A stretch of DNA of 64,000 nt. It comes from an uncultured archaeon (lineage in GTDB: Archaea; Asgardarchaeota; Lokiarchaeia; Sigyniarchaeales; SOKP01). The stretch's first letter is position 1. Every line of letters starts with the position of its first letter. The translations under genes were made by a program, and so were the position numbers. The stretch spans positions 32,001-96,000 of the forward strand of contig CAYLZE010000007.1 of the NCBI GenBank assembly GCA_964388035.1, in the 5' to 3' direction. This document shows, in pieces, positions 29,506-63,866 of this stretch. Under the pieces are notes generated by a model, which was given only the letters and a program-made list of their open reading frames with translations, did no database searches and was not told the origin of the DNA.

Positions 29506-29554
29506 AGAACTTAATTTATCATCTTTTTTTTAATATATTGGGAAATGGCAATTT

Positions 29555-31943: not shown

Positions 31944-31946
31944 AAA

Positions 31947-38869: not shown

Positions 38870-38887
38870 TGTTTTATCCCTAACTGT

Positions 38888-39520: not shown

Positions 39521-39534
39521 ACACGAACACCTCG

Positions 39535-40929: not shown

Positions 40930-40981
40930 TTTCCCTCATCTATTCTGATTTTTTTCATTTTTAACATTACTCATCCTTTTC

Positions 40982-43529: not shown

Positions 43530-43533
43530 CTTT

Positions 43534-43854
43534 TTAAATTATTATTTTATGAATGATATCATAAATTTTGTTATAAAATATATCCGCACTGTCAATATTA
43601 GGTTCAAAAATATTAGGAACGTGAAATACAAAAGGACTTCTATTATTTATTTTGAAATCTAATAAGAAATCAATATCATTTGGAGATAGTTCCATTGCGA
43701 TGATAATCATGCCTATTGATTTTTGTTTTATTAATTCGTTAAATACTTTAATAAAATCTTCAGGTTTTTCCACTTCTTTACCTTCTATTCCCAAGAGCCC
43801 AAATAACCTAACTAATTCAGGATCTCCCATTATAAACATTTCTTGTTCCGGCAT
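43534..43854 (-). CDS. atpF: A/V-type ATP synthase subunit F
   Basis: IMGDPELVRLFGLLGIEG, IGMIII, PFVFHVP. Confidence 0.88.
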   Translation of the reverse strand: MPEQEMFIMGDPELVRLFGLLGIEGKEVEKPEDFIKVFNELIKQKSIGMIIIAMELSPNDIDFLLDFKINNRSPFVFHVPNIFEPNIDSADIFYNKIYDIIHKIII

Positions 43855-44168
43855 TAAAATTCAAGCTTTAGTTTTTGTAAAATTGTATCTATTAATTGTT
43901 CTTTATTCTCCAAAAAAGCATTTTCGATATTTTTCAATGCACTAATAAAACGAGCATCAAAATTTTTTATTCCGACATGTACATCTTCAGAAAGTTCCTT
44001 TAACGCAGTATTGACGGTAGCGTGTTTTTTGTCAATTACATTTTCCATGCTGGTATCTTGCTCTTTCCGATAATTTTTCAAATCAACATTATTCTCTTCC
44101 TTAGCATTTTCGATCAAATACTTGTATGTCTCCTCAATATCCTTTATCCAATCAAATAAGTCAACCAA
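43854..44168 (-). CDS. A/V-type ATP synthase peripheral stalk subunit H/G (putative)
   Basis: 104-aa helical protein (IKDIEE...IENAKEE), stop overlaps atpF start. Confidence 0.65.
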   Translation of the reverse strand: MVDLFDWIKDIEETYKYLIENAKEENNVDLKNYRKEQDTSMENVIDKKHATVNTALKELSEDVHVGIKNFDARFISALKNIENAFLENKEQLIDTILQKLKLEF

Positions 44169-44185
44169 TTTTTTTCAATCCTCAA

Positions 44186-45247: not shown

Positions 45248-45368
45248 AAGATAACACCACGATTACATTTTTTAAAATAAATAATAAATAATTTTTATCT
45301 CCTTAGCAATTGGTAGAGGTATAATACATTAGAATGTTAAAAATTATAGCATGTTTCTATTAGCTAAG

Positions 45369-45749
45369 TTAGGGTAATGAAGGAATTTTAGTCCATAGTA
45401 AGACTGCCATGATTAATCCATAAATTGCTAATGCCTCACAGAGTGCTACTACGAGAAAAGCTTTAAAAAAGACTTCTTCCTTCTCAGATAATGACGCTAT
45501 TGCTGCTGTACCCGTTGTTTTTAATGCTGTACCCGCACCTAAAGTTGATAACCCTATGGCTATGCCCGCTCCTAAACCGAGCATCCCAGCAGTGTTGGCA
45601 CTATAGTAATCATAATTAGAGGGTTGCTGAACTTGTGCACTAACAAAACTAATTATTCCATCAACGGAGAAAAGAACTACCATCACCAGAAGAACTTGAA
45701 ATACCGCTAGTAATAAAAAAAACTTCTGTTTACCATTCATCAATTTCAC
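45369..45749 (-). CDS. atpK: A/V-type ATP synthase proteolipid subunit K (c) with N-terminal signal-like extension
   Basis: Gly-rich helix GLGAGIAIGLSTLGAG and VALCEALAIYG carrying the ion-binding Glu. Confidence 0.92.
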   Translation of the reverse strand: MKLMNGKQKFFLLLAVFQVLLVMVVLFSVDGIISFVSAQVQQPSNYDYYSANTAGMLGLGAGIAIGLSTLGAGTALKTTGTAAIASLSEKEEVFFKAFLVVALCEALAIYGLIMAVLLWTKIPSLP

Positions 45750-46185
45750 GTATTATGATTTGTTCTTAATTAATATTCTAAATAATTTTAAAATATTTTA
45801 AGTCTTCCTAAAAGAAAAAACTATTGCTTAGATTTATAATGAATGATATGAAAGAAACTAGTTTCCAAAAAAATTATATCGTTAAAAACCTCTTTTGTTT
45901 CTCACCTTCTTTGATTGCTACTAAAATTTTAATTATAAGCATAAAAAGCCGAATATTATAATATTTAATTAGAAATAGTAATCTTTGAATATCTGCCATT
46001 TTGAGACTAATATTATTTTCCTATTATACTCATGTAGAGGAATATTTATAGAATCTTTTTATCTTCAATGTTTTAACATATTTTTTTGAGTCATTTTTCG
46101 AAACCGAGAGATTTAAAAGCACGTACCCCATTAAAATTGCAAATTAGTCTCATGTAATTATAAAAATATAACCCGATAAACAAAA

Positions 46186-47685
46186 ATGATATATCAAGGA
46201 TTGTTCAACATATTAGACTTGTATTTAAACCAAATGCACTCCTTTTATAGTTCTATTGATAATTATTTTCAGCAGAAAATCAAAAATGTCTTTGGAACAA
46301 CGGTCATTAGCAATGAGATTAAAGAAACTCATGAGAAAATCATTTCTATGATTTCGGAAGATTTGAGCGAATTAGGGTTAACAATGGAGGATATTGATTG
46401 GATCTTTTCAAGAAGATTCTCCAATGGACAAAAATCTCTTCTTAGCAAATCAGAGATATATGTTACTGCTTTAGAGATTTATAATGCTAAAATATCCTCC
46501 GTGCTCCATGAGTTTTTTTTAGAAAAAATATTTGAGTATTTAGCAGATGAACCAACGAGTAACTCAACAATAATGTACTTAAAATCTAAGAATTTCTTGA
46601 CTATTGAATTCATGATGGAATTGCGGAATTTAAAAAGTTTATATGATAAAGCCCCAAAAAAGAAAAAAAACTTAGGAAAATACCTCAAAATTCGGGAAGA
46701 AATCTTATACCTCTTGAAAAAAAATAGAGAAAAGATAGAAGAACTCGAAGAATTTTCTGATCCGAGAGATAGATTGCAGTTATTCTACATGATATTTCGG
46801 ATTATCGACTTTTTTGGAATTCAAACGATATTTGATTTTAGTAAGATCAAGAATTACATCCAAAATAATATAGAGGAGTGGCTAGAAACCCTTCCTTTAG
46901 TTACCTTAAAGAATCCTGACCTCTATTATTGTGGAATCTATTTAGCAAAGGGGTTAGATTTAACTTTTAAGGAAGAAGATGAATATACAATCAAATACTT
47001 TCTACTAAGTATATATGATGAAAATATTGATGAATTTGAAGCACCAGTAATTGAAGCTACTAATAAAGTGGACTATTTTCTTAGATCTTCATTATTAATG
47101 GACTTAGAATTATCAGAGGAACAAGTTAAGGAGCTCCTAAAAATACCTCCTAAATTCTTAAGGGGTAATCATCTAAAAAATTTAGAAACATCTCAATTAG
47201 TCCTTATCCTACAAATGTATAATATAATGAAAGTAAAAAATGTAGATAGTACCATTGTAAAAATGATAATGAATGAGATTGAACAGCGCATTTCAACGGG
47301 AGGAATCAAGCAATTTAGAGAAGGATTTATTACTTCTGAGGCAACTTATTATGTCATGTTATGTAATTATATGCAAAGTACAATGAATATTTTAAAAGAT
47401 TATGACTTGATTGATAAACTAATCTCACGAATTTTTAGAAACTTAGGAATACTTGTTTTTACTGAAGAAACGAATTATGATTTATTGAGCGAGATCTTTT
47501 TCTCTTGTGAAGCTTTAAAATTATTAAATTGTGGTGAATCCATAACTGCCCTTATTCATCTAGTAAAATATTTATTTCCACAAGACGTATTAGATAAAAT
47601 TTTGATCAGGGGAAATAAATTTAAGCAAGATATCAAATTCAACAATTTAAAAATTAGTAGACTTACAGGAGAAAACCTCCATTAA
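46186..47685 (+). CDS. Hypothetical alpha-helical protein, possible degenerate prenyltransferase-like repeats
   Basis: 499-aa ORF; GGIKQFREGFITSEATYY resembles an alpha/alpha-toroid repeat. Confidence 0.5.
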   Translation: MIYQGLFNILDLYLNQMHSFYSSIDNYFQQKIKNVFGTTVISNEIKETHEKIISMISEDLSELGLTMEDIDWIFSRRFSNGQKSLLSKSEIYVTALEIYNAKISSVLHEFFLEKIFEYLADEPTSNSTIMYLKSKNFLTIEFMMELRNLKSLYDKAPKKKKNLGKYLKIREEILYLLKKNREKIEELEEFSDPRDRLQLFYMIFRIIDFFGIQTIFDFSKIKNYIQNNIEEWLETLPLVTLKNPDLYYCGIYLAKGLDLTFKEEDEYTIKYFLLSIYDENIDEFEAPVIEATNKVDYFLRSSLLMDLELSEEQVKELLKIPPKFLRGNHLKNLETSQLVLILQMYNIMKVKNVDSTIVKMIMNEIEQRISTGGIKQFREGFITSEATYYVMLCNYMQSTMNILKDYDLIDKLISRIFRNLGILVFTEETNYDLLSEIFFSCEALKLLNCGESITALIHLVKYLFPQDVLDKILIRGNKFKQDIKFNNLKISRLTGENLH

Positions 47686-47746: not shown

Positions 47747-48790
47747 TTAAGCAAATAGAATTATTTTTAATATAGCGTAAGTTGAATAATAAAAAATTAA
47801 GATAAGTGATTCCCGAACAGTTAAAGTATTATCAGTCCATAGAAAAATAAGACTTAAGAAAATTGCTCCCAATAAAAGAGGAATATCAAACCATATTAAA
47901 GAGGGGGGAACGATAAAATCTACTATTATTGCACCTGATCCAGTAGCTAATAAAATATCACAGATATTTGATCCAAGGATATCTCCTATCGCAATTCCGG
48001 AAGATTTTCTTTTTAAAGCGGTTAAATCAGCTACTAGTTCTGGTAAACTTGTACCTACTCCAACCAGAAATAACCCTATAATGTATTGGGGGATCTGTAA
48101 TATTTTTGCTAATTCATGTGCATTTAGAACAGTCAATTCTGCGCCGATTAATAAGATAGTTAATCCTAATAAAAAGATTAATAGATTCCTAAAAACTTTA
48201 TTCTTAATATCTGGTATGTCTTGCTTATTTTCCACATTTTTTATAATGGCAGAAGATTCATCCTCAATTTTTTCTTTTAAAGCCAAATATTTACGAACTT
48301 CTTTTTCCGCTCGTTCGTTTTTTTTTTCACTCCAAATTATAAAAATTAAAAATAAAAAATAAGAGACAATATAGATAATTGCATCTATTCTTGAAATGAT
48401 TCCATCCATCGCACAGAAAAAAAATATAGCAAGGGCCACGATCATCATCAATCCTTCCCGTTTTAGTTCCCATTTTGAAACAAAGATGGCTTGAGTCAAT
48501 CCCAATATCCCTAAAATTAAACTTATTTGTGCGAAGAATGATCCTACTTTATTTCCTATTACGATACCATCAATTGTGGGATCCAATCCCGTTACTTTAT
48601 CAAAAGCACCCATTACACTAACTGCAATTTCGGGAAAGCTCGTTCCTATAGAAAGAATAGTCAGACCTATAAGAATATGACTAATCCCAAACTTTTTTGC
48701 TATGTTTTCTAAACTAATCACGGTTAATTTTGCTCCATAAAACAAACATATTAGCCCTAAAAAGAGAAACAAAATCGTATTTACAATCAT
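47747..48790 (-). CDS. Cation/Ca2+ antiporter (CaCA, YrbG-like)
   Basis: Two alpha repeats GTSFPE / GTSLPE, GNKVGS / GDILGSN. Confidence 0.92.
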   Translation of the reverse strand: MIVNTILFLFLGLICLFYGAKLTVISLENIAKKFGISHILIGLTILSIGTSFPEIAVSVMGAFDKVTGLDPTIDGIVIGNKVGSFFAQISLILGILGLTQAIFVSKWELKREGLMMIVALAIFFFCAMDGIISRIDAIIYIVSYFLFLIFIIWSEKKNERAEKEVRKYLALKEKIEDESSAIIKNVENKQDIPDIKNKVFRNLLIFLLGLTILLIGAELTVLNAHELAKILQIPQYIIGLFLVGVGTSLPELVADLTALKRKSSGIAIGDILGSNICDILLATGSGAIIVDFIVPPSLIWFDIPLLLGAIFLSLIFLWTDNTLTVRESLILIFYYSTYAILKIILFA

Positions 48791-49042
48791 TATTGCTTTA
48801 ATATACAATACTTTTTTAAAAATTTTGAAAAGCAAAAAGCACTAAAATTATTATTTCTTAATTGGTTTCATATTCACAATTATCAAATAGATTAATAAAT
48901 ATTTTGAATTCCAATAAACATGGATAATTTGTGACAAAATAAAAATTAAGGTCAATAATTTTTTAATACTATCATCAAAGACTCAAAAATATCCTTTATG
49001 TTAAAATAATTAATAAGCAGATTAAGGAAAATTGATAATAAT

Positions 49043-49564
49043 TTATTTAATGATTTTCTGAATTTCGACAATCCTTTTCGAAATGTGTTCTAGTGAATAT
49101 TTAATATGATTTTGCATTTCAATTATTTCTGATAATATTTTATTAATATGGGTTTTTTGAGAATTTGATAAGGATTTTTGCATTTGTGAGGATTTTATGG
49201 AATTCTGCGGATTCTCTTCTTTTTTTACGATAAAAGTTCTGGATTCTCCAGGATATTTAAGATCCACGCGTCCTTCAATAATTTCATTATAAATTGGGAT
49301 AAATTCTTCTGGCTCACGACCTTGCTTGATTAATTCATATTGATAATCATAATATTGCTTTTTACCTTTTAATTTTCCCGCCCAATTCGAAGCGATATAA
49401 CGATGAAAGAGCCGGGATTTTTGCCCTGCCCATAACCATATGGTTTTAATGGTCTTATCTATAATTAGATAGACACCTTCAGGCTCAAAAAAAGTAGTGA
49501 TTTCATTTGATAAAGATTCCCCGTCAATAATATAACAATATTCTGAATATTCCTTGCTTAACAT
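49043..49564 (-). CDS. Single gelsolin-domain protein with C-terminal coiled coil
   Basis: FEPEGVYLIID...IWLWAGQKS...ELIKQGREPEEF matches the gelsolin repeat consensus (vyilD, iyvWxG, QgxEpxeF). Confidence 0.82.
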   Translation of the reverse strand: MLSKEYSEYCYIIDGESLSNEITTFFEPEGVYLIIDKTIKTIWLWAGQKSRLFHRYIASNWAGKLKGKKQYYDYQYELIKQGREPEEFIPIYNEIIEGRVDLKYPGESRTFIVKKEENPQNSIKSSQMQKSLSNSQKTHINKILSEIIEMQNHIKYSLEHISKRIVEIQKIIK

Positions 49565-49759
49565 TTTATTCTCTCTCCTTTGCTAATTAAAAAATTAATC
49601 TAAAAATTCCTAATTAAATTTAACGTAAAGAAAAGGCACTTGTAATAAAGAAAAAATAAATAATAGCTATTTAAATTAGGGAAATTAATCGTTAAATTGC
49701 TAAAAGGTACTGATTTTAAGTATATCAAGATTAAAAAAAGAAAATAAAGTGATAATTTA

Positions 49760-51694
49760 TTATTCATAAAACTGTTCCAATGCCAATAGTAAGTCCTTGA
49801 GGGTGCTTAGATCCGGTATGAAGAGAAAAGTCCCAACCATTTTTATGTCCGTTATCAATACATTCGTCGTAATAACCAAGGATAATTTCTTTAAGAGCCC
49901 GATTTCTTTTTGTAATATTTTAAATAATTGCTTACCTGTATCAACGCTAATATCGGGAGGTTCGGTCATTAATCTTAAATTAAGAAGATCACCAATCGCG
50001 TTAGCATAATGGCTGGCTAAGATGTGTCCCAATTCTTTCATAGCATCTTCATAAATTTCTGGAATATCTTTTACAGCTTCGATCTTTTTTCGCATATCTA
50101 TCTTCTTTTTATCCTTATCGTCTATGATAATCGATGTGAGATCAATGAAATCTTTAATTTTGAAGATCGATAATACCGTTGCCCTCGTTTTTCCTATGAC
50201 ATTACTCCAAGCGATAAAGAGTTTTTCATTTTTCTTACTAATTTCATTAGCATATTTATCCAATTCTACCATTTCTACCGATGGTATATTGATATCCACT
50301 CTTTTATTGATCATTTTGGCTAATGCATTAGCCGCATTGCCCGCCCCCATATTTCCTACTTCTTGAAGGGCATCCCTTTGTAATTCAGTCAATTCTATTA
50401 CCTCTATCTCTTTTTCCACAGTATCATTTTTAATTCCTTTAATTAATGGTTCATAATCTATTTGAAGCTTGTCGAAAAAGTTGTAAAGCGTGTTGATATC
50501 GGGAATAAAGAAAAACACACCATTCAACCTTAAGTCCACCACCTTAATGGAAGTCTTGATAATCACTACAAAATCCGCAATGGCATTTATTTCTGAGCCT
50601 AAAAATTCTCCTAGCGATCCAACATTAGTTAAAGCAAATTCGGGCTTTTCAAGCATCATTTTCATTTTTGTTAAATCCGCTAATGCAGAAACGTAATGTC
50701 CCGCCATGATATTACCCATTTCTTCAATAGTAGAGATGGCAAAATCATCCAAATCTTCTTTTCCATTAACTTTACTTGGGTCTACTTTTGTATCCTTGCC
50801 CGCTAAACTCGCCACCAATTTCATTAATGGTCTCACTTCAAATACTTGAAGTATTGTCGATTCCGAAGGTCCTTTAATTTTTGAGAAAATACCGCAGATT
50901 TTTTCTTGAATTCCTCCAAATTGGTTACTAAGTTGTTCAAAGGTAATTATTCCGACATCTGTCAAGTCGACATCAATTTTTTTCTTTATCAATCGAGAAA
51001 GAGCGGTAATTGCATTACCGGAACCGATATTCCCGATTTCTTTCAATGTATCTTTTTGATATTCAGTTAGCTTCAAATCCACTTCAGTTGCGTTCGAACC
51101 CCGCTTAAATGCAAGAGGTTTCGGTTCAGGATGAGGAATTCTTGGGATAAAATCTTCTTCTTGTGGAATTTGCTTAAATTCTCCTTGATTGACCTCTTTT
51201 TTATTGGGGAGCGACACAGGTTTAGGTGCCATGGTTCTAAGGGAGGGGGGGACAATTGCATCTAGGTCTAATAAAATGTACGTCGTATCATCCAATACTC
51301 CTACCGATTTGATAAACCTGTAATCAATATAAGTCTCAATAATAGTACTCTTTGTCTCAAAAATCGAGAGGGGAAGCTTTTTTACGCCTATGACTTCATC
51401 TATCAATAAAGCAATTTTCAAATTACCCATTTCTAAAAGTACAATTCTTGACTTTTCGGTTAATTCATAATCTGTTACTTTTTCATATAATTTATGCCGT
51501 AGGGAAATGATGGTATAAATTTCTCCTCGAATATCAATGAGACCTAATATACTTTTATCTGCTAAGGGAACGGGAACAATATTCTCTTTAGGAATGAAAA
51601 TTTCCTTCACATTCTTTACTTGTAGCAAATAATTTTCATTCCTTACTTTGATGATGATTGTATTCACGTTCTTGACTTCTTCTGACTCGATCAT
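49760..51694 (-). CDS. CheW-CheC-CheC fusion protein
   Basis: N-terminal CheW (VPVPLA..ILGLIDIRGEI, LLIDEVIGV); CheC motifs EIGN, EMGN, EVGN, ELGH. Confidence 0.88.
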   Translation of the reverse strand: MIESEEVKNVNTIIIKVRNENYLLQVKNVKEIFIPKENIVPVPLADKSILGLIDIRGEIYTIISLRHKLYEKVTDYELTEKSRIVLLEMGNLKIALLIDEVIGVKKLPLSIFETKSTIIETYIDYRFIKSVGVLDDTTYILLDLDAIVPPSLRTMAPKPVSLPNKKEVNQGEFKQIPQEEDFIPRIPHPEPKPLAFKRGSNATEVDLKLTEYQKDTLKEIGNIGSGNAITALSRLIKKKIDVDLTDVGIITFEQLSNQFGGIQEKICGIFSKIKGPSESTILQVFEVRPLMKLVASLAGKDTKVDPSKVNGKEDLDDFAISTIEEMGNIMAGHYVSALADLTKMKMMLEKPEFALTNVGSLGEFLGSEINAIADFVVIIKTSIKVVDLRLNGVFFFIPDINTLYNFFDKLQIDYEPLIKGIKNDTVEKEIEVIELTELQRDALQEVGNMGAGNAANALAKMINKRVDINIPSVEMVELDKYANEISKKNEKLFIAWSNVIGKTRATVLSIFKIKDFIDLTSIIIDDKDKKKIDMRKKIEAVKDIPEIYEDAMKELGHILASHYANAIGDLLNLRLMTEPPDISVDTGKQLFKILQKEIGLLKKLSLVITTNVLITDIKMVGTFLFIPDLSTLKDLLLALEQFYE

Positions 51695-51733
51695 ATTTTT
51701 TACCTCTTTCTTTCAATTGTTTTTTTTAGATTT

Positions 51734-52567
51734 TCACGTTTTTATCATAATACCTTTCCAAATTAATTCAATAACTTGTTCTTGTTCTTTTACCACTTCA
51801 GAAAAATAACCTATTTGCCGGAAGATAGCAATTTGCCCTCCATCTGACATCTTATAAATGTAATCCAATAAGTCTTGAATATCCCCGAAATTAAACCCTG
51901 CAATCTTAAATTGTTCCACATCGTTAAGCATGACGATTATTAAATCTTCCCCATTAAAATTTTTTTCAGGATCCATGTACTCTACCCATAATTCGGGATA
52001 AATTGTTTTTTGTTTCAAGTTAAAGGCTTCATTGATAGGTATGTTTCTAAAAGTCTTATTGGTAGCAATGATGACTCGATCCGGTTCAATATTTGAGACC
52101 GTACCATAAGTGATGATATTATTAATGGTTTCCATGTAAAGAGATAAATCTAAAGTATCGCAACACGTAATGAAAATTATTTTATCATCTTTATCTTGAA
52201 CGCCAAAATCGATATCATTACTTTCTAAATCCAATTTAATAGATTCTATATTCATTTTTTTTGTATATTTTAGATATTTATATAATCGCCATTTAATGGC
52301 CTTTCTATCATTTAATTCCTTACTTATGAAGATTTTGTATAACAGTTCAAGTTGAGCATGATTTAATTTGGAAAGATTCTCATTATTTCCAAATTCGCCG
52401 GTTAGTTCATAATACCTTTCTTTAGATATTTTATCATTTTCACCTGCTAGATCATTCAGAATTACCGAAATTTCTCCTGCAGTAAAGCCGGGAGTAATTC
52501 TTTTTAATAATTCTCTCAAAAAGTCATCTGATTTATCATACAAGGTGTCATAATATTGATAATTCAT
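51734..52567 (-). CDS. Hypothetical protein in che operon (possible degenerate PD-(D/E)XK-like alpha/beta domain)
   Basis: 277-aa ORF with 33-39-nt spacers to neighbours; DIDFGV..KIIFITC..PDRVIIAT pattern. Confidence 0.55.
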   Translation of the reverse strand: MNYQYYDTLYDKSDDFLRELLKRITPGFTAGEISVILNDLAGENDKISKERYYELTGEFGNNENLSKLNHAQLELLYKIFISKELNDRKAIKWRLYKYLKYTKKMNIESIKLDLESNDIDFGVQDKDDKIIFITCCDTLDLSLYMETINNIITYGTVSNIEPDRVIIATNKTFRNIPINEAFNLKQKTIYPELWVEYMDPEKNFNGEDLIIVMLNDVEQFKIAGFNFGDIQDLLDYIYKMSDGGQIAIFRQIGYFSEVVKEQEQVIELIWKGIMIKT

Positions 52568-52600
52568 TTGTTATCTTTCTCCTAATATTCTTTATTATAT

Positions 52601-55600
52601 TTATCCAAAAATAAAAGATTCTAATTCATCATATTCTATTTCTTTATCATCCATTTTTTTCACATAATAACGAATTTCCTTTTCTTGATAAGGTTGAATT
52701 TTTTCTATAGTAAATAATATCGTGTCGCCTTTTTCTGCTTTAGATTTTTCCAATTCATAATTAATATTGGAGGAAATAAACTTAAATGATTTTGAGAGGG
52801 TATCCTTAATAATTACCTCCTCTACATCTACATCCGAATTATTCCGGACTATCACGCTGATTCCGAATTCATTTAATTCTCTTCCGGGAAAAATTTCCTT
52901 ACCAATCAATAAATCCCTGCGCTTATGAATTACCTTTAACTGGGGTAATAACTTTGACGGCACGCTACTTTGAATGATATAATATAATATTTCCGCTTCC
53001 TTTTCGTGCTGGTGAATATATGGGAAGTAAATGGTATAGTCCAAGGGAAAATTATATGCTTTTTTATGGTTTGGAGTAATTGCCTTTAAAGGATACTTTA
53101 TCTCGAGAAAATCATCGACGTCCATTAATATAGATTGACTATCTTTTTGGAGATTCAAGGATAATTCTAGTTGATGAGATTTCGTAGGATCCTTATCATA
53201 AGGTATGATATTCACTTTGATAATATTTGAACTTATCTTACCCGAAGAATTCCTAACTTGGAATTCTGAGCTATCAAAAGAAGGAAGAAAATCCGAGGGA
53301 ATCATTTCAATCAGATTCATGCTCTTAATTGCAATTGTACCGAGATTTTTGATCATGACGACATTCTGCAGGACGTTCTCTTCAAAAGATTTTATTTCAT
53401 GCTGAGAGAATTTTTTGTCTATGCGTAAATCAGCAATATCAAAATAGCGATCATCGAATTTGAGAGAAACAATAGATCTTTTCTCGATTTGATAAGTTAC
53501 TCCGTATTCTAATTTTCGGTAAAACTTCGGTTCTTTTAAACTTTCAACCATCCACCCTTCGCTTTCGTATTGGGAACCGGGATGAATTATGCTTGTTGAA
53601 TCATTCGAATCAAAATGTAGATCTAAATAATTTTGTTTTCTATTTTCATCAACAACGTTTATTGATTTTAATAGAATATTAAAATCGCTATTATTTAGAA
53701 ATGTGAGAAAACAGTGCCACTTATTAGGTTCTTCCTCCATTTCTTTTAAATTCATAGCATGCATCACGTGAGAATACCCTGAAAAATTCTCAATATCTAA
53801 TCCAGAAATCAGTTGGCTTTTATAAAGATAAGAGATTTGAACTGTCCCTGTACTGATAATCTTTCTTTCGGAGGGATATATTTCTACAAAAATAATAATT
53901 TCTGCTTTTGCCCCGGGTTTTAACTCATTTAATGTACAAAATAAGGTCCTATTTTCAATTTCAATTCCTTGTACAGCATCACTTTTATATTTAAAATCAT
54001 AAAAATCTTCAGAGAATAACTTTCCTAATTTTATATCCGTAATAATACTATCAGATACATTTTCAAGCTTAAGGGTAAACTTGACGGAATTTTTCTGATT
54101 AAATAATAACAATAATTTATTTTTTGCCTCATAGCTCTCTAATTTTTCCACATGTTCCAAAAAGGAAGACTTTTTTGCGTCCTCCTCTTTATAAATTTCT
54201 TCTAATTTCTCTTTTAAGGTGAATTCTCTTTTATCCTCATAATCTTGAACTTCATTTTTGAGATTAATTATTTTTGATTCTAGCTCATTTTTTTCCTGAA
54301 ATAATTCGCTGGATTGGTCACAAACTTTGTTATATTCTTTCTTCATCTCGTTTAACTTGGATCTGAATTCTTCTAAAGTTGTATCATGTTTATTAATAAT
54401 GGAATCAATTTTCTTGTCGAACTCTTCTTTAATAACGACATTATTTCTTAGGCTCTTTATTTCCTCATCTTCTAATTTCGAGAGTTCTCTCCCTTCTTTG
54501 TCTATTAGGTTTTCTTTAGTAGCAACCAGCTCTTCAAATATTTTTCTCTTTTGTTTAACTAGATTATCCAAATTTTTTCTTTTTTCTTCCCATTGATCAA
54601 GTTCTTTATTAAATTTTTCATAAAAAGACTCTTCGCTTTCAAGCTTTTTTTCAAGATCATCAAGACTCTCTTGAAATTTTTTTTCTACTTCAGCTGAGTC
54701 TAATCCTTCTTTTTCTGCATTTTTCAGTTCTTTTGATTTATCTTTCAATAATGATTTTTGATTTTTTGATAAGTCTTTAATTAAAGTCTTTTTATCTTTA
54801 TTAGTCTGTTTTAACTTATCCGCCTTTTCTAAGGCATCTTTCAAATCTTTTTCATTTTTATCTAATTCTAATTGAATAGCCTTAATTTGTGGATCATATT
54901 CCTTATTTAAATCTGATATTATTTTATTTTTCTTTTCTTGAAAATTAATTTTCGTTTTCTCAATCCGGTTATTCAATTCTGACAATTCTTCTTGATTTTT
55001 GACCTTAAGTGTCTTAAGGTCCATTTCTTTTTCAATCGGATGACTTTCACTTAAATCTTTCAAGTATTTAATTTGAAGCTCTATCTTTTTTTGTACTATA
55101 TTATTTATTTCATTTTCATTCTGTTCAATTAAATTGCTTAACTGTTCTTTTTGATTAGAAATATTATTAAATTGTTTCATTACATCACTATAATATTCTT
55201 CCTTAGAACTCACATCTGATTTTAACTTTCCCAGTTTTGTATCAAAATTCTTAGCGATTTCTTCATTTAGCTCGTCTTGTTTCTTGGAGGTTTGCTTTTT
55301 AATCTTTTCAATTTCTTCCTCCTTATTTTCAAAACGAAGCTTTTTTATCTCAACATTAGTAACTTCTATAGTTTCGGTTAATTTTAATGGAGGAGCAAGT
55401 TCCTTAGTATCAATTAAGCTATAATTAACATTTTTAGTACTTCGGGGTTCAAAATTACCTAAACTGATAGTATTTCCTCCTTCCAAGTTAATATTATTCA
55501 TTCCAGTGAGTGTAAGTTTTGAATCCCATACTCTATCCTTTTTTGAACTATTTAATGCTCTTATTACTCCTGTACCAGAAAAATTGGTTAAATTTTTTTC

Positions 55601-55795
55601 TTTATCATAAATATATTCAATAATTTCTTCACATAATAGAGAAAAGTCTGAAAATAATTCTATACTTTCTTTCTTTATTTCGCTTTCTCCTTGCTGCAAC
55701 TTTTCTATAATTTCCATCCTTCTAATTGGCATTCCAATAAATGCTGAAGCGATACTTGTTTCTAAATCCTTAATAGTCACGTGTTTAAATCCCAT
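52601..55795 (-). CDS. Large cytoplasmic protein: Ig-like beta-sandwich repeats interrupted by a ~400-aa coiled coil
   Basis: Beta-rich repeats (VKFTLKLENVSD, NVVMIKNLGT, ISVIVRNNSDVDVEEVIIKDTL) flank a K/E-rich heptad region at ~aa 155-560; no signal peptide or TM. Confidence 0.7.
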   Translation of the reverse strand: MGFKHVTIKDLETSIASAFIGMPIRRMEIIEKLQQGESEIKKESIELFSDFSLLCEEIIEYIYDKEKNLTNFSGTGVIRALNSSKKDRVWDSKLTLTGMNNINLEGGNTISLGNFEPRSTKNVNYSLIDTKELAPPLKLTETIEVTNVEIKKLRFENKEEEIEKIKKQTSKKQDELNEEIAKNFDTKLGKLKSDVSSKEEYYSDVMKQFNNISNQKEQLSNLIEQNENEINNIVQKKIELQIKYLKDLSESHPIEKEMDLKTLKVKNQEELSELNNRIEKTKINFQEKKNKIISDLNKEYDPQIKAIQLELDKNEKDLKDALEKADKLKQTNKDKKTLIKDLSKNQKSLLKDKSKELKNAEKEGLDSAEVEKKFQESLDDLEKKLESEESFYEKFNKELDQWEEKRKNLDNLVKQKRKIFEELVATKENLIDKEGRELSKLEDEEIKSLRNNVVIKEEFDKKIDSIINKHDTTLEEFRSKLNEMKKEYNKVCDQSSELFQEKNELESKIINLKNEVQDYEDKREFTLKEKLEEIYKEEDAKKSSFLEHVEKLESYEAKNKLLLLFNQKNSVKFTLKLENVSDSIITDIKLGKLFSEDFYDFKYKSDAVQGIEIENRTLFCTLNELKPGAKAEIIIFVEIYPSERKIISTGTVQISYLYKSQLISGLDIENFSGYSHVMHAMNLKEMEEEPNKWHCFLTFLNNSDFNILLKSINVVDENRKQNYLDLHFDSNDSTSIIHPGSQYESEGWMVESLKEPKFYRKLEYGVTYQIEKRSIVSLKFDDRYFDIADLRIDKKFSQHEIKSFEENVLQNVVMIKNLGTIAIKSMNLIEMIPSDFLPSFDSSEFQVRNSSGKISSNIIKVNIIPYDKDPTKSHQLELSLNLQKDSQSILMDVDDFLEIKYPLKAITPNHKKAYNFPLDYTIYFPYIHQHEKEAEILYYIIQSSVPSKLLPQLKVIHKRRDLLIGKEIFPGRELNEFGISVIVRNNSDVDVEEVIIKDTLSKSFKFISSNINYELEKSKAEKGDTILFTIEKIQPYQEKEIRYYVKKMDDKEIEYDELESFIFG

Positions 55796-55851
55796 AGGTT
55801 AATCCTCCATTTTTTTAAATTCTTGTCATTTTAAAAAATTGTTTTTTTAAT

Positions 55852-58002
55852 TTAAGATGCATCAATTGATTCTAGTTTCTCAAATACATGAGTAATTGAA
55901 GAAATGATGTTTGGCACATCAAGAACAATACAGATTGATCCATCACCGGTAATCGTCACTCCCAATATTTCCTTAAAAGAAGAGTATTTTGATCTAAACG
56001 GTTTTATCACCAAATCCATTTGTTGCAGAATTTCATCTATTATGAATATTGCTGAATCTTTTTCATCTTTATTACAATAGATTGCAATTTTTCCTTTAGA
56101 TTCTGCATCGGATTTAACTCTTTCTTGTTTTTCATCATCTTTTGGAACTTCAGGACTTTCGATTGAAGGATCTGTTGTGAGAATTAAGTCCTCTATTTTT
56201 TCTTGTTCCATTTGTGTTGAAATATTTAAATATCGGTCTAATCTGACGATGGGTACTAAATCAGAACCAAGACGGTAATATTCTTCACCTTTCACGTATT
56301 CTACCAACTCACGAGAAAAGAAATAAATTTGATTGATATTTTCAATGGGAATCGCATAGAGATCTCCAGCCACTTTAAACATTTGAGCTTTTAAAATAGC
56401 TCTTGAAAAAGGCACGGTCAGCGAAAAGATAGTTCCTTTCCCAGGAGTAGAAGCTAAGTTAAGAGAACCTCCGAGTTCCTTGATTTTTTCGGCAACTATA
56501 GCAAGACCCATCCCTCTCCCCGAAATCAGATCTGCGCTGGATAATGTTGAAAATCCGGGAGTGAATAACACTTTTTTAAGATCACTTTCGGAGAGTTCCG
56601 TTGCTTCTTCGGGGGTATATAATCCTAATTCTATTGCTTTAGTTCTTGTTCTTTCATAATCTATTCCCTTACCATCATCTTCTATTTGGATGATTACTGA
56701 ACCGGCTCTTCTAAAGGTTTTAAGTTTAAGGTTCCCCATTCCCGATTTTCCCAGGCTCCTTCTAATATCAGGGGTTTCAATTCCGTGATAAATAGCATTC
56801 CTTAAGAGATGAATCAAAGGACTATTTAATTGTTCAAGAATCTTCCTATCAATCTCTACATCCGTTCCTTCCAACAAGAATTTCACATTTTTATTCGTTT
56901 CTTTTGAAACATCCCGGACCAATCGTCTATATCTTCTAAATGCTGATTCTACACGCACAAGTTTTAACTTAAAAATGATCTCTTGTATTTCTAAAAATAA
57001 CTTATCCATGCTATCAAAGTAGCGATTCACCCCCCAATCTCCACGTGAAGAAAGAATTTGACTTAATTGATTTTTAATAATAATGACTTCTCCAAAATAA
57101 TCCATGAGTTCTTCTAATGTTTCTATATTTACCTTAACAGACGTGATTCTTCCCAATTCATCTTCAAAAGAACCAGTTGTGCTGGGAACTCTATCAATAC
57201 CTTTTTGTTCAATGACTTGCTCTTCTCTCCGAGCATCTTTTTTCAATTTAGAATTGGCCTCTAATAAAACATCTTTGAATTGCTTAGACGAAAGGGGTGC
57301 AATTGATTTATTTTCAATTTCTAAGATTTCATCTAACACTTGCGTTATTTTTTTCGAATCATGCTCCGTAAGATAATAGATTGCCAATTTGAGGTCAAAC
57401 TGACCATTTTCTAATAAATATGGTTCTGGATCACTCCAATATATTTGACCAATCTCATTTAACGCCCTAAAAATAATAAACAATCTAACTTTTTTAAATA
57501 CGCAGGTAGATTGTAATTCTATTGTTATTTTATAAAACCTATTTTTTTTATTGGTGGTCAATGAGTCTATTTGATCATTGGGAATGGTTTTAATAAAGGT
57601 AATTTCATAATCCGATTGAAATTCTTCAAATCCTTCTTTTAATTCTTTAACCATTCTATCATCTATATCTTTAATTTCTCCTGCCTTGGCCTGCTTAGTT
57701 ACAAGTCTCAAAACATCTAGACTTTCGAACATCAATTCTACTATTTCCCGGGATTTATTGGCTGATACTTCTTCTTCCTTTGCTTTATCAAGTAAATTCT
57801 CAAAATTATGACAAAATTCGGAGAGATTGTCTAATCCGACCATGGCAGTCATTCCTTTTAATGTATGGAATGTAAAATATAAATTCTGGATTGCTTTTTT
57901 ATTATCTGGATTTTCCTCTAAATTTAACACGTTATCTTCAATAGTCTGAACTAAATCTTCTGTCTCCGAAAGGAAGATTTTCATATCTTCATTTGACGCC
58001 AT
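55852..58002 (-). CDS. cheA: Chemotaxis histidine kinase CheA
   Basis: Hpt FHTLKG, P2, HLLRNAIYHGIE, EDDGKG, GFST...SGRGMGL, C-terminal CheW domain. Confidence 0.97.
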   Translation of the reverse strand: MASNEDMKIFLSETEDLVQTIEDNVLNLEENPDNKKAIQNLYFTFHTLKGMTAMVGLDNLSEFCHNFENLLDKAKEEEVSANKSREIVELMFESLDVLRLVTKQAKAGEIKDIDDRMVKELKEGFEEFQSDYEITFIKTIPNDQIDSLTTNKKNRFYKITIELQSTCVFKKVRLFIIFRALNEIGQIYWSDPEPYLLENGQFDLKLAIYYLTEHDSKKITQVLDEILEIENKSIAPLSSKQFKDVLLEANSKLKKDARREEQVIEQKGIDRVPSTTGSFEDELGRITSVKVNIETLEELMDYFGEVIIIKNQLSQILSSRGDWGVNRYFDSMDKLFLEIQEIIFKLKLVRVESAFRRYRRLVRDVSKETNKNVKFLLEGTDVEIDRKILEQLNSPLIHLLRNAIYHGIETPDIRRSLGKSGMGNLKLKTFRRAGSVIIQIEDDGKGIDYERTRTKAIELGLYTPEEATELSESDLKKVLFTPGFSTLSSADLISGRGMGLAIVAEKIKELGGSLNLASTPGKGTIFSLTVPFSRAILKAQMFKVAGDLYAIPIENINQIYFFSRELVEYVKGEEYYRLGSDLVPIVRLDRYLNISTQMEQEKIEDLILTTDPSIESPEVPKDDEKQERVKSDAESKGKIAIYCNKDEKDSAIFIIDEILQQMDLVIKPFRSKYSSFKEILGVTITGDGSICIVLDVPNIISSITHVFEKLESIDAS

Positions 58003-58044
58003 ATCTTACATCAACTCTTTTATTTACCTATTAATTCTTATTTT

Positions 58045-58422
58045 TTATTTTTTTAACAATCTTTCCAAGACTTCCTCTACTTGTTCATTTTTAAAAGGTT
58101 TTTGAATAAAATCTTTAGCACCTTTTTTTGCTGCTTCTAACACTAATGCTTCCTGACCCAATGCAGACACCACCACAATGATTGCATTTTTATCAAGCTT
58201 TAACAATTCTTCAGTAGTCTCTATTCCCCCTTTTTCAGGCATAACTAAATCCATGGTGACCAAATCAGGCTTCAACTTTTTATATAGTGTAATGGCCTCA
58301 TTCCCATTTACAGCCTCTCCCACCACTTCAGTATAAGCCGTATTATCTATAATTTTCTTTAACATGTTGCGGGTGAAAGCAGCATCGTCCACGATAAGAA
58401 CCCTTTTTTTGTTATTTGACAT
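58045..58422 (-). CDS. cheY: Chemotaxis response regulator CheY
   Basis: VDDAAFTR, TMDLVMP, SALGQ, QKPF. Confidence 0.95.
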   Translation of the reverse strand: MSNNKKRVLIVDDAAFTRNMLKKIIDNTAYTEVVGEAVNGNEAITLYKKLKPDLVTMDLVMPEKGGIETTEELLKLDKNAIIVVVSALGQEALVLEAAKKGAKDFIQKPFKNEQVEEVLERLLKK

Positions 58423-58476
58423 TTTTGTTAACGCCTCTATTTATTGATTTTTATTTTTTATGGTTTTTAATTTAAA

Positions 58477-58998
58477 TTAAATAATAGATTTTTGATCTTG
58501 TTGAAGAGAAATTTGTTCTGCTTCTGATAATATTTCGCGTAAATCTATGAGAATTCTCGGTCTATCCTTGAATTTAACCACGCTTTTTATGTATTTAATA
58601 TCACTAAGACCCGTCTGAAAAATTGGACTCAGTCCAACCAAGTCTTTTCTGGTGATGTGAGAAACCTTAATGATCCGATCTACATAGAAGCCAATTTGCA
58701 TGTCCCGTATATTCACTATAATGATAAATTTCTTTCCTGAATCGTTTTTATCGTTTAAATTTTGAGCTTTATAAATGTCATAATCATCCAAATTCAATTT
58801 CTTTTTTAAATTAATAATGTGAATGATATTACCCCTGTAATTGTAAATACCTTCTATAAAATCTAGGCTCTTGGGTAATCTTCTAATTTGCCCGGTTTGA
58901 ATAATTTCTTTAACATCCAAAAGATCTATCACAAATTCCTCCCATCCTACTTTAAAAATAATTAAGGAAATCTGTTCTTCAAGCTGTTGTTCTCCCAT
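58477..58998 (-). CDS. cheW: Chemotaxis adaptor CheW
   Basis: VKEII, RLPKSLDFIEGIYNYRGNII, GFYVDRI. Confidence 0.92.
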   Translation of the reverse strand: MGEQQLEEQISLIIFKVGWEEFVIDLLDVKEIIQTGQIRRLPKSLDFIEGIYNYRGNIIHIINLKKKLNLDDYDIYKAQNLNDKNDSGKKFIIIVNIRDMQIGFYVDRIIKVSHITRKDLVGLSPIFQTGLSDIKYIKSVVKFKDRPRILIDLREILSEAEQISLQQDQKSII

Positions 58999-59238
58999 TT
59001 TCTATACCATCCTTAAATTTTACTCAATTATTATTATTAAATTTTAAATTATTCTCATTTTATTTCTTGATAAATTTTTCAACCATAATCAATTCTTTAT
59101 TTCAATAATCTTAAATTTCATTTCTACAAAATATTTTTATCCACATTATCCAATAAAATAAAATATAAATGGAAATTAATCCAAATTTAAAAAAATTTTT
59201 TTCATTCGATGAACCTGAGGTCCATCCTTATTTATTAA

Positions 59239-60234
59239 TCATTTTGTTACCTTTGCTTCAGCACTTGCTTTCTGTTCAACAGCATGAATATCCAATGTTT
59301 TCTTCAACTCATCTGCTAAAGTACCGAGTCTATTAGCGGTAGCTGCGATGTCATCCATAGATGCTTTTTGTTGATCTGTTGCCTTCATAACTGCCTCGAT
59401 GTTTTCTTCATTTTCTTCTTCATGATGTTCGACATCTTCAATCTCCTGAGTAACTGCATCAATGGCAGTGGTAGTTCCTTCGATTAAACTTTCAATAAGG
59501 TCTATATTTTTTGATGATTTAGAAACCGATCCTTTTGATTCTTCCGCGAGCTTTCTTACTTCATCGGCTACTACTGCAAATCCACGACCATGCTCCCCCG
59601 CCCTTCCCGCTTCAATGCTTGCATTAAGGGCTAACAGATCCGTTTGTTCAGATATTTTTGTAATGATTTCCATGACTTGATCAATATCTTTAGTATGGGT
59701 GATTATTTCATGAGCATTTTTATCGATGGTTTCTGAGTGACTCTCTATTTCTTTTAAGGCCTTTACTTGTGCCACGGTTGCATTATCTAATTTATGCATC
59801 CTTTCGGTGATTTCACCTGCTGTTGCGTCAACCTGTGTAGCACTTGCAGATAATTCTGCTGCGATGCTGGACACATTAATAGCGACTTCTTCGGCATGAT
59901 CAACGATAGATTCCATGGAAAATTCTTTTTGTGCAAGTTCTTCCATTGTTTGAATTAATCTATATTCAATCATAACAACTAATCCTGTAGATAAGATTAG
60001 AACTGCTGATGCTAAACTCATCAGATCAGAAATTACATCTGCCATTCCTGCTTCAGTAAAAATTGCTATTCCATTCCATCCAAATCCAATGGTGAGATTC
60101 AAGAATAAAATCATAATTAAAAGCCGACTCAAGCTACTAGTATTGCGTCGATATGCATCGATCATTAACATAGCACTAATGCCAAAAAAGACAGCTCCCA
60201 TAATAAACATTAGACCTGAAAATACATCTACCAT
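59239..60234 (-). CDS. Methyl-accepting chemotaxis protein (3 TM, no HAMP)
   Basis: [38 protein letters not shown] hairpin signature. Confidence 0.95.
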
Positions 60235-60235
60235 G

Positions 60236-60556
60236 TTATTTACCTCCTCTTACGGATGATTCTTGAGTTGTCGTTTCGGTTTTCTTTAAAGCCACACGCC
60301 TATAATATACGACCCCGACCAGGGAAAATATTCCCGCGAGAAAGAAACATAATGCTTCTACTGTGGGATTGCCAAGATACATGAATAAAACTGAACCAGC
60401 CATCGAAAGGAATGTGAGAAGAAATATGCGCAATTCAGGTTTTCTATAAGCATTGATTATAAATATAATGATCCCTAAGATGTAATAGATTAAAACCATT
60501 GGATCTATAAATGCCATTATTGCTGATTCTTCAGCTGTTGCTGTTTGTAATATCAT
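60236..60556 (-). CDS. Small three-TM membrane protein coupled to the MCP gene
   Basis: SD GAGGTG; stop is 1 nt before the MCP ATG. Confidence 0.75.
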
Positions 60557-61754: not shown

Positions 61755-62405
61755 ATGGTAAAATCAACCATGAGTAAATTTGATACTTTATCAAACAGAC
61801 TATTTTCCAAAGTTGCAGGGGGTATTTATGGATTAATTTCTTCTGTTATCGCGGGATTAGGAGATATACTATCACTTCAATTTTTTCCCAATTATAGTAT
61901 TGTTAATGACATGGTTTCAGAGTTAGGGATAACCAGTGGCGGTATTTTTTTTAATTTTGGTCTTATTATTTCCGGATTAATTGGTCTCGCTTTTTATTAT
62001 TCGCTAAGTAAAGTTTTCTTAAAAGAAAATCGATTGATAAGAAAATGTGCTTTAATTTCCTCTTATTTATCTTGCATTACGTTTTCTTTAATCGGAGTAT
62101 TTCCGGCTTACCAGGAAAAAGAATTAATTCTCTCGCTATATTTGCACGGCACATTTGCTGCCTTGAGTTGGATAACGGGCAGCATGTATTGCTTCTTTTT
62201 TAGTATATTGATGATGAGGAATAAATTCTATACTAATTATTTAGCTTATTATGGATTTTTCTGTTCCGCTTTATTTATTATTCTTCTTCTGACTTGGATA
62301 CCAATTTTAGAATGGAGTCTCTCGTTTGCTATTTTTGGATATGTTATTTTTAATTCGATATATCTCATAAAAATAAACACTGAAGAATTCTCTAATTCTT
62401 CATAA
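61755..62405 (+). CDS. DUF998-like membrane protein
   Basis: YSIVNDMVSELG, FFNFGLIISG, LIGVFP, LHG, LEW. Confidence 0.78.
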   Translation: MVKSTMSKFDTLSNRLFSKVAGGIYGLISSVIAGLGDILSLQFFPNYSIVNDMVSELGITSGGIFFNFGLIISGLIGLAFYYSLSKVFLKENRLIRKCALISSYLSCITFSLIGVFPAYQEKELILSLYLHGTFAALSWITGSMYCFFFSILMMRNKFYTNYLAYYGFFCSALFIILLLTWIPILEWSLSFAIFGYVIFNSIYLIKINTEEFSNSS

Positions 62406-62500
62406 ATCAATCCAACCATTTTATTAATAAATTTAAAGAATATATTAATTAATTTACTTAGATTATGAAAAATAGTAATATAATTTAATGGGTGATAATC

Positions 62501-63172
62501 ATGAAAATTGAAGAATTAGAAATAACTAAGAATTTGATCATAAATGAGTCGGATGCATTGCTTATTGTAGATATGCAATATGATTTCATGCCAGGGGGGG
62601 CTTTGCCTGTAGAAGGGGGAGATCAAATTATTGCTCCAATAAATGAGATTGAAAAAATTTTCAAGGAAAAAGGGTGTCTTATTGTTTTAACTCAAGATTG
62701 GCATCCAAAAGAACATTTATCCTTTGCGAGCAATCATCCTGGGAAAAAACCAGGAGATTCATTCCAAACAGAGGCAATAGGCCCCATTTTATGGCCGGAT
62801 CATTGCGTACAAGGTTCAAAAGGCGCTGACTTTCATAATAAACTTGAAACAAAGTTAGCTCAAGCAATTATTCGAAAGGGTTATAGACCCATGGTAGACA
62901 GCTATTCAGGATTTTTGGAAAATGATAAGAAAACGGAAACAGGTTTATCAGGATATCTGAAATCTCGAAAGATCAAACGTTTGTTTATATGTGGATTGGC
63001 ATTGGATTATTGCTGTTATTTCACTGCCTTGGATGGAATCTCTTTTGGTTTTGATATGGTATTTCTCATCGATATGACACGAGGTATAGATCAACCGGAA
63101 GATAATATTTCAAAGTCTTTAGAAAATATGATTTTAAAAGGTATAAAATTTGCCAATAAAGATAGTTTTTAA
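62501..63172 (+). CDS. pncA: Nicotinamidase/pyrazinamidase
   Basis: VDMQYDFMPGGAL, TQDWHP, WPDHCVQG, RKG, DSYSGF, GLALDYCC; ATG after SD GGGTGA. Confidence 0.93.
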   Translation: MKIEELEITKNLIINESDALLIVDMQYDFMPGGALPVEGGDQIIAPINEIEKIFKEKGCLIVLTQDWHPKEHLSFASNHPGKKPGDSFQTEAIGPILWPDHCVQGSKGADFHNKLETKLAQAIIRKGYRPMVDSYSGFLENDKKTETGLSGYLKSRKIKRLFICGLALDYCCYFTALDGISFGFDMVFLIDMTRGIDQPEDNISKSLENMILKGIKFANKDSF

Positions 63173-63290
63173 CATTTTTTCTCTCTCGTTCAAATCTTTA
63201 TTTTATATTACCAATTAACTATTTAAGATTTTAAAGGATTTTACATTATTTTTAATTAGCATTTATTTTAATCAAATTAAAAAAAAGTTA

Positions 63291-63770
63291 ATGAGAAAAG
63301 ATTCTTTCCCTTTTAAAAGCATATTAGTGGCTTGTAGTGTAAATACGGCTCGCAGTCCCATGGCAGAGGGATATTTGAAGGAATACATTTCCAGAAAAGG
63401 CATGGATGTACAGATTCAATCAGGGGGAATCGCTTCTAACGCTAGAGATGGAATGTTAATCTCTTTAGATGCCCGATTAGCCATGAAAGAAGATGGTATT
63501 TTACTCCCCGAAGATTCCTTATCAGTTGATTTAAAAAAACACTCCGAAATTATAGATCAAGCAGATTTAATATTGACTTTAACAGAGCAGCATAAAACGG
63601 AAATACTGCACCATGTAAAATACAATAATAAAGTAATCCTTACATTGAGAGAATTCGCGGGAGAATGCGGTGATATAGAAGATCCCTCCATGAAAGGAAT
63701 TGAAGGATTTCGCATCGTAAGGGATGAGATCAAAGAATGTTTGATCAAGGGGTTAGGAAAATTCTTTTAG
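63291..63770 (+). CDS. Low-molecular-weight protein phosphatase family (LMW-PTP/YwlE-like)
   Basis: CX5R loop CSVNTARS-PMAEG, ADLILTL, DIEDP. Confidence 0.87.
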   Translation: MRKDSFPFKSILVACSVNTARSPMAEGYLKEYISRKGMDVQIQSGGIASNARDGMLISLDARLAMKEDGILLPEDSLSVDLKKHSEIIDQADLILTLTEQHKTEILHHVKYNNKVILTLREFAGECGDIEDPSMKGIEGFRIVRDEIKECLIKGLGKFF

Positions 63771-63866
63771 TTTCCTTTTAAAGTATAGAAATAATAGTAA
63801 AATTTGAAATCTCATTTAACATTTATAGTTTATACGAGAACGAGAAATATCGCAAAATAAGAAGAA

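Follow-up and report, generated by a model that had tools for sequence, protein, structure and literature searches.

The 64,000-nucleotide (nt) stretch of DNA analysed here, hereafter the window, spans positions 32,001 to 96,000 of contig CAYLZE010000007.1 from an uncultured Lokiarchaeia archaeon (assembly GCA_964388035.1). It is best explained, from sequence comparison, as containing the core part of a chemosensory operon of the Lokiarchaeia type, with no archaellum for it to control. Gene order and co-inheritance in relatives show that the genes of a gelsolin-type protein, of a long Ig-like/coiled-coil protein (BigCC), of an orphan protein of 277 residues (Unk277) and of a Roadblock-Ras fusion GTPase probably belong functionally with this Che pathway.

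The core consists of nine co-oriented open reading frames (ORFs) arranged head to tail between 60556 and 49043 on the minus strand, exactly as listed by an initial annotation made from the sequence alone, and Pfam recognises the Che domains assigned at that time:

60236-60556, minus strand: 106-residue membrane protein with three hydrophobic, putatively transmembrane (TM) segments (3-TM), directly 5' of the next gene
59239-60234, minus strand: methyl-accepting chemotaxis protein (MCP) with a 3-TM N-terminus (TM 1-28, 33-53 and 63-82; PF00015, 1e-31)
58477-58998, minus strand: CheW (PF01584, 1.6e-25)
58045-58422, minus strand: CheY (PF00072, 8e-26; DD12-13, D58 and K108 in the sequence)
55852-58002, minus strand: CheA (Pfam: P1 Hpt, P2, H-kinase_dim, HATPase_c and CheW-like P5)
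52601-55795, minus strand: BigCC, 1064 residues, Ig-like/coiled coil, with DUF11 at the C-terminus (Pfam)
51734-52567, minus strand: Unk277, 277 residues, an orphan without Pfam family
49760-51694, minus strand: CheW-CheC-CheC fusion, 644 residues (PF01584, 6e-21; PF04509, 1.9e-36, in three stretches)
49043-49564, minus strand: gelsolin-domain protein, 173 residues, of an operon-specific subfamily

The Pfam scores of the MCP, CheW, CheA (Hpt, kinase and P5) and the CheY receiver lie far above the cut-offs; a Pfam search with the 106- and 277-residue proteins returned nothing. Homologs of the former also sit 5' of the MCP in three other loci (L030, L046 and L050). CheY is the most conserved of the operon proteins (72-82% identity to its orthologs), and the CheW-CheC-CheC fusion, a predicted phosphatase of phosphorylated CheY (CheY-P) tethered to the receptor array, shares 51-61% identity with its orthologs in 28 loci. 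Read from the coordinates, the spacers between cheW and the CheC fusion measure 54, 42, 56, 33 and 39 nt, within the 33-56 nt previously given, and 195 nt precede the gelsolin gene. The window MCP is the single PF00015 match in the assembly, and whole-genome tblastn identifies the window CheA as the one full-length copy in the genome. Homologs of the cluster proteins come from named metagenome-assembled genomes (MAGs) of Promethearchaeota/Lokiarchaeota.

The gene order of this locus in other lineages provides the first line of evidence. A scan with an Unk277 profile, taking one genome per species, yielded 29 named loci from Promethearchaeota, Hermodarchaeota and other Asgard MAGs. The gelsolin gene is found directly 3' of CheW-CheC-CheC in 25 of the 26 informative loci, defined as those with downstream DNA present, and thus its neighbourhood is not a product of chance. 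This position is kept across at least eight genera at 41-60% identity. Furthermore, additional che genes come after it on the same strand in 18 of the 22 loci with enough downstream DNA, and so the gelsolin gene is normally internal to the operon. The canonical arrangement begins with the 3-TM protein and MCP (not in all loci), a 270-residue protein, CheW, CheY, CheA, BigCC, Unk277, CheW-CheC-CheC and gelsolin, and continues with CheR, CheB, CheD, CheC, the Roadblock-Ras GTPase and a long CheB with a response-regulator domain. The order CheA, BigCC, Unk277, CheW-CheC-CheC, gelsolin is constant on the contigs of operon-bearing relatives, and BigCC always lies between CheA and Unk277; the synteny across Asgard on which the initial annotation had wished to see its proposal checked is therefore conserved for the gelsolin gene and for both orphans.

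The phyletic distribution of these genes tells a similar story. Among 60 relatives, a close CheA ortholog (at least 44% identity) occurs in 13, and Unk277 orthologs are found in the same 13. The gelsolin ortholog is present in 12 of these 13 and in none of the 47 others; weaker gelsolin paralogs exist in nearly every relative genome. Within-genus contrasts point the same way: in the genera g1, g3, g6 and g11, a genome has CheA, Unk277 and the gelsolin ortholog together or none of the three. Roadblock-Ras tracks these genes in all four genera, being located on another contig in one che-positive g3 genome. The 13 relatives that carry this type of operon yielded neither CheF nor archaellin, and the only CheF match among the 60 relatives is in G051.

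A che-less congener of the same genus (G001) is, two gaps apart, collinear with the window. The segments that in the window span 44072-45767 and 61809-63782 lie approximately 380 nt apart in the congener, which is missing a 16-kb block with the gelsolin gene, the rest of the che cluster, a gene without family (orf499) and a Na+/Ca2+ exchanger gene. Similarly, segments 28831-31944 and 36675-43995 are separated by approximately 800 nt, and the missing block of about 4 kb comprises the long CheB, Roadblock-Ras and an LCIB-type carbonic anhydrase gene. A mobile-element origin of the 16-kb block was considered and rejected: no tRNA was found, and the flanking repeats are just AT-rich chance matches.

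The second of these gaps corresponds to a displaced part of the operon, which is split in this genome, with a Roadblock-Ras/long-CheB pair at 32167-34970, some 15 kb away:

34017-34970, minus strand: Roadblock-Ras fusion GTPase (Pfam Ras, 5.8e-37, plus Robl_LC7), just 5' of the long CheB
32167-33750, minus strand: long CheB methylesterase with response-regulator domain, 527 residues (PF01339, 5e-57, plus PF00072)

Since these genomes abound in Ras-like genes, the argument for the GTPase uses one orthogroup and not proximity. The window protein shares 51% identity with the copy adjoining the gelsolin gene in L006/L007, with the next paralog in the genome at 38-41%; by this sequence comparison it is the ortholog of the in-operon GTPase of relatives. 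Roadblock-Ras lies inside the operon in 16 of the 29 loci and is followed by the long CheB in at least 12. With orthologs defined by at least 47% identity, it is found in eight che-positive relatives and in none of the 46 che-less ones.

The 270-residue protein encoded 5' of CheW in relatives has its copy here on contig C50. It has no Pfam match. In the ESM Atlas, its C-terminal half falls near clusters of Fuz/Mon1-type longin and of Roadblock/LAMTOR2 proteins (TM-score 0.78 by target). A profile comparison by hhalign with the GTPase's Roadblock domain fell short of significance (E 0.087), and PDB profiles gave weak LC7 matches only (E 0.4-0.5). Since the profile comparisons brought no confirmation, the likeness rests on the ESM Atlas, and we treat the protein, as a lead, as possibly longin/roadblock-like.

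At the family level, the gelsolin domain is confirmed by sequence profiles. A profile of 39 orthologs finds ProGel of Thorarchaeota as its best PDB match (7c2f_B, E 2.3e-9), and also matches Heimdall/Loki 2DGel (5.6e-5), villin and CapG; taken singly, 16 of the 39 orthologs match PF00626, the best at 5.7e-6. According to the alignment, a gelsolin/ProGel-like domain (approximately residues 15-100) precedes a variable linker, after which comes a conserved C-terminal helix (approximately 140-173). The core of the subfamily is nearly invariant (VYLIID..IWIWAG..SRLFHRYIAANWAGKLK), and neither the W-x-G motif nor the long helix varies in the family. With some 35 conserved residues beyond the linker, the architecture appears to resemble that described for 1DGelX, a gelsolin domain followed by a helical extension, the coiled-coil domain X. 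ProGel has been crystallised on actin, 1DGelX nucleates and severs actin without calcium (Akil et al. 2020, PMC7444086), and the Asgard gelsolin-domain proteins tested so far all act on actin (PMC7444086).

The two orphans of the cluster offer fewer functional clues. In the AlphaFold2 model of BigCC (predicted local distance difference test, pLDDT, 77.8), residues 51-152 form a beta-sandwich, residues 158-553 are helical and four to five further beta-sandwiches occupy 561-1047, and Foldseek retrieves generic strings of Ig-like domains, which bears out its first description as an Ig/coiled-coil protein. Neither these matches nor the DUF11/CARDB-like features returned by the ESM Atlas hint at function. 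A scan for TM segments found none, and the protein is cytoplasmic. Its coiled coil of about 395 residues is variable, most orthologs being approximately 670 residues long and devoid of it. For Unk277 (AlphaFold2 pLDDT 87), residues 85-198 align with nuclease folds at VIA-align Z-scores of 8.2 (Card1), 7.9 (AF1548) and 7.8 (NucS), a Z of about 8 being middling; such folds fill the VIA-align match list, and Foldseek E-values reach just about 1e-3. The modelled core may thus resemble a restriction endonuclease of PD-(D/E)xK type. Of the catalytic motif, the (D/E)xK part is missing in all 14 orthologs aligned; D120 is invariant at the second strand, and the third strand reads xxFxxCxxxLE. The C-terminus is also conserved (ELIWKGIM). 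A collection of 5.8 billion proteins contains 38 homologs, all hypothetical proteins and from Asgard MAGs only. The BigCC-Unk277 pair adjoins a divergent CheA in further families without the gelsolin (L017, L018, L019 and L023), and is thus the most widely conserved accessory part of the system.

We also examined the remainder of the genome, an assembly of 211 contigs that is 96.7% complete. The initial annotation had seen no cheF, archaellum or pilus gene in the window. For CheF (PF04283), archaellin (PF01917) and the T2SSF/ArlJ-type platform (PF00482) the absence extends to the whole assembly, where none gave a match and positive controls were detected. For pili the claim does not carry over. 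The assembly has only two T2SSE matches, a PIN-ATPase on contig C33 and a type-IV-pilus-like ATPase on contig C26, and the latter (C26:11454-15746; L025 7454-11747) is a locus for a 726-residue T2SSE ATPase, a 137-residue protein with a pilin-like N-terminus and a 509-residue 7-TM protein. This ATPase is found in 43 of 61 related genomes, many of them che-less, and so it is distributed independently of the che operon; a type-IV-pilus output was rejected on this ground, although the locus exists. The C26 locus adjoins ribosomal protein L3 and is widespread in Lokiarchaeia with and without che genes. An archaellum with CheF in the genome, together with extra genes unlinked to che loci in relatives, had been named at the outset as the pattern that would tell against the proposal. 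We saw neither, the extra genes being tightly che-linked.

The adaptation set is complete. CheB is encoded in the window, CheC is present as the CheW-CheC-CheC fusion, and a genome search for cheR and cheD, as suggested by the initial annotation, located both on contig C24. The CheR match (C24:33240-34052; L027) forms part of a 679-residue ORF with a long extension, and a long CheR of 736 residues lies 3' of the gelsolin gene in L011/L035. A 582-residue ORF at C44:5666-6835 (L028) combines a CheA-like Hpt with two P2-like repeats without a kinase domain, and similar genes are found in G008, G013 and G015. The genome has four actin genes.

How might such a pathway operate? We infer every physical interaction in it, as well as the direction of information flow. 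One 3-TM receptor and its separately encoded 3-TM partner would signal through CheW to CheA, which would phosphorylate CheY; the CheW-CheC-CheC fusion would remove the phosphate from CheY-P at the array, with adaptation provided by CheB, CheR and CheD. The output or adaptor side would be formed by BigCC as a scaffold, Unk277, the 1DGelX-like gelsolin protein, the Roadblock-Ras GTPase and the putative longin/roadblock-like protein. CheY-P would most likely act on the gelsolin-type protein and/or the GTPase by way of these operon-specific products, and a local change of actin filament dynamics would then bias the growth of protrusions or crawling.

Since Asgard gelsolins act on actin wherever tested and the cells crawl by means of actin, coupling to the actin cytoskeleton is the most economical reading. 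That the Che pathway steers actin, its output passing through operon-specific proteins, is the best of the readings considered, but one that we advance tentatively and would stop short of calling probable. It supposes that this gelsolin subfamily would bind actin (Lokiactin), that CheY-P would reach the gelsolin-type protein, that the two orphan proteins might replace CheF and that crawling might be steered by the Che pathway. The proposal in its entirety, with bacterial-type chemotaxis wired directly to eukaryote-type cytoskeletal control, CheY-P steering actin protrusion or crawling, and BigCC and Unk277 in the role of CheF, seems to us rather doubtful.

Several observations weigh against a steering of actin by this pathway. 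Gelsolin identity, as called by the initial annotation, stands for the family, but the window protein alone scores 15.7 bits on PF00626, under the 21-bit cut-off. The gelsolin gene may be transcribed separately here, because the 195-nt spacer 5' of it is AT-rich with oligo-T runs; the gene has its own GGAG site. One informative locus, from the Helarchaeota MAG LW55_61 (L054/L015), is without gelsolin; in this MAG separate CheW and CheC genes stand in place of the CheW-CheC-CheC fusion, with CheR-CheB directly after. A pilus-like machine is possibly present in the genome, judging from the C26 locus. The binding of ProGel to actin is weak (PMC7444086). Finally, "Candidatus Lokiarchaeum ossiferum" (G055), which crawls, has three che clusters, all of other types and none with BigCC, Unk277 or this gelsolin. 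The che-gelsolin link is thus lineage-specific and not general to Asgard crawling. The interpretation first offered, in which receptor arrays might steer cytoskeleton-based movement, is in part supported; the link of the gelsolin and the extra genes to che on which it was built is stronger than was visible from the window alone, being normally operon-internal and extending to Roadblock-Ras and the putative longin/roadblock-like protein.

In an alternative scenario the gelsolin fold would no longer bind actin and would serve as a Che accessory, be it as target of CheY-P, regulator of CheC/CheD or array component, in a pathway controlling the C26 pilus-like machine, adhesion or surface proteins or some other function. 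Bacterial chemosensory systems with non-flagellar outputs, such as Pil-Chp, Wsp and Frz, provide precedents. The divergence of the window gelsolin, evident from its 15.7 bits, fits this scenario, a helix as extremely conserved as its own could be there for any conserved partner, and the T2SSE ATPase does adjoin a pilin-like protein and a 7-TM protein. However, that ATPase is uncoupled from the operon by its presence in many che-less relatives, T2SSF was not detected in the assembly, and no Asgard gelsolin-domain protein has been tested that does not act on actin (PMC7444086). We consider this scenario unlikely.

The gelsolin-type protein and the BigCC scaffold might instead tether or position the array on actin filaments, such as those in protrusions, or report the state of the cytoskeleton as an input, with the output lying elsewhere. 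The co-inheritance data are the same for this reading, as they give no direction, and a long cytoplasmic Ig-like/coiled-coil protein without TM segment would suit a spacer or scaffold. In other archaea and bacteria, chemoreceptor arrays are positioned by dedicated proteins. Yet a switch-type GTPase and a longin/roadblock-like protein in the operon fit signalling better than anchoring, and the coiled coil is dispensable in most BigCC orthologs, which makes a tether or input quite improbable in our view. Least of all would we expect the gelsolin gene to be an unrelated passenger hitch-hiking with the operon: it is the last gene of the window cluster, behind a 195-nt spacer, and one lineage (L054) keeps the operon without it, but its fixed and mostly operon-internal position in 25 of 26 loci, over at least eight genera at 41-60% identity, and the lack of an ortholog in any genome without the operon render this very improbable.

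Some components of the steering reading are already in print: che genes and putative arrays in Lokiarchaeia, actin-dependent crawling, and Asgard small GTPases and roadblock proteins. The 2026 description of actin-dependent crawling of Asgard cells by protrusions is silent on chemotaxis and sensory control (PMC13716822), as is the work on Asgard small GTPases and roadblock proteins on chemotaxis (PMC10933270). Chemotaxis is not mentioned in a 2026 review, and a full-text literature search turned up no account of gelsolin or GTPase genes in a che operon. What is new from this window is the derived split operon, the clean within-genus insertions or deletions and the orthogroup-level test of the GTPase. 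The operon names concrete candidates that might join sensing and crawling, namely a dedicated gelsolin, a Ras-type GTPase, a longin-like protein and two orphans, all of a size amenable to pull-downs, actin assays and complex prediction. Should the link to actin be true, directional control of the actin cytoskeleton by a receptor-kinase system would predate eukaryotes, and if the steering reading is true, close relatives of eukaryotes would possess a prokaryotic forerunner of chemotactic amoeboid movement. If the link is false, what remains is an operon that defines two or three new families of conserved, Che-associated proteins in CheF-less archaea.

Two further genes of the 16-kb block lie 3' of the gelsolin gene:

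46186-47685, plus strand: orf499, without family
47747-48835, minus strand: Na+/Ca2+ exchanger (PF01699, 1.4e-44)

The membership of both in the che system is uncertain. The order gelsolin, orf499, exchanger is repeated in L009/L031, and orf499 is found near the operon in L029, L035, L046 and L050; it recurs beside the operon in several genera, at varying positions, and its paralogs lie on contigs C60 and C8. Apart from the present genome, the exchanger occurs 3' of the gelsolin gene in one other genus, where it is partly decayed (L009). The neighbourhood is otherwise typical for an Asgard genome, with the Roadblock-Ras fusion, a UFL1/DDRGK/PCI/Vps28-like protein and an A/V-type ATPase operon. 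The 789-residue protein encoded at 19027-21396 (plus strand) has DDRGK, UFL1 (E3 UFM1-ligase), PCI and Vps28-like matches, and looks from these like a fused ufmylation/ESCRT-type eukaryotic-signature protein. The A/V-type ATPase operon (36635-45749, minus strand; subunits I, D, B, A, F, C(AC39) and c) lies between the two che-related blocks, and its subunit-D ORF has just 148 residues, matching the C-terminal part of the family. The carbonic anhydrase gene of the 4-kb block, a beta-type LCIB-like one, is located at 35085-35885 (minus strand).

Comparison with known systems places this operon among several relatives and analogues. The archaeal F1-type system of Halobacterium and Haloferax employs the adaptor CheF and the ArlCDE archaellum switch. 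It shares with the present operon the same core of MCP, CheW, CheY, CheA with P2, a CheC-type phosphatase, CheD, CheB and CheR. In contrast, CheF and archaellin were not detected here or in the 13 relatives with the operon type, CheC is fused to CheW, and five extra conserved operon genes are present, encoding BigCC, Unk277, the gelsolin-type protein, Roadblock-Ras and the longin-like protein.

The che sets of L. ossiferum represent Lokiarchaeial chemotaxis genes as well, in an organism known for its actin-filled protrusions. Its che genes and putative chemoreceptor arrays have been reported, with broad roles suggested for them (communication between cells, interactions and motility) and no specific output (PMC9834061). 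We found six archaellin-family (PF01917) matches in its genome (G055:C1 5215287-5217284 and 859980-865961) and no CheF match. As an experimental host for the present operon the species was ruled out, the gene set being missing.

The Asgard gelsolins ProGel and 1DGelX resemble the window protein in having a single gelsolin/cofilin-type domain with a W-x-G motif, and 1DGelX apparently also in the C-terminal helical extension that follows it. The window protein differs from both as a separate subfamily found with this che operon type only, whose actin activity is putative.

A last parallel is found outside the Archaea, in the Frz system of Myxococcus xanthus, a chemosensory pathway that acts on the polarity module of MglA, a Ras-like GTPase, and MglB, a Roadblock protein (PMC2907295). 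The differences are considerable: here Roadblock and Ras are fused in one protein and a gelsolin-type protein is present, while neither Frz-type response regulators nor the Myxococcus motors (type IV pili and Agl/Glt) were found in our analysis. The likeness should thus be read as an analogy only and not as pathway homology, yet in both cases a kinase pathway of Che type is linked genetically to a Ras-like GTPase and a Roadblock domain, and surface movement takes place, or here would take place, without a flagellum.

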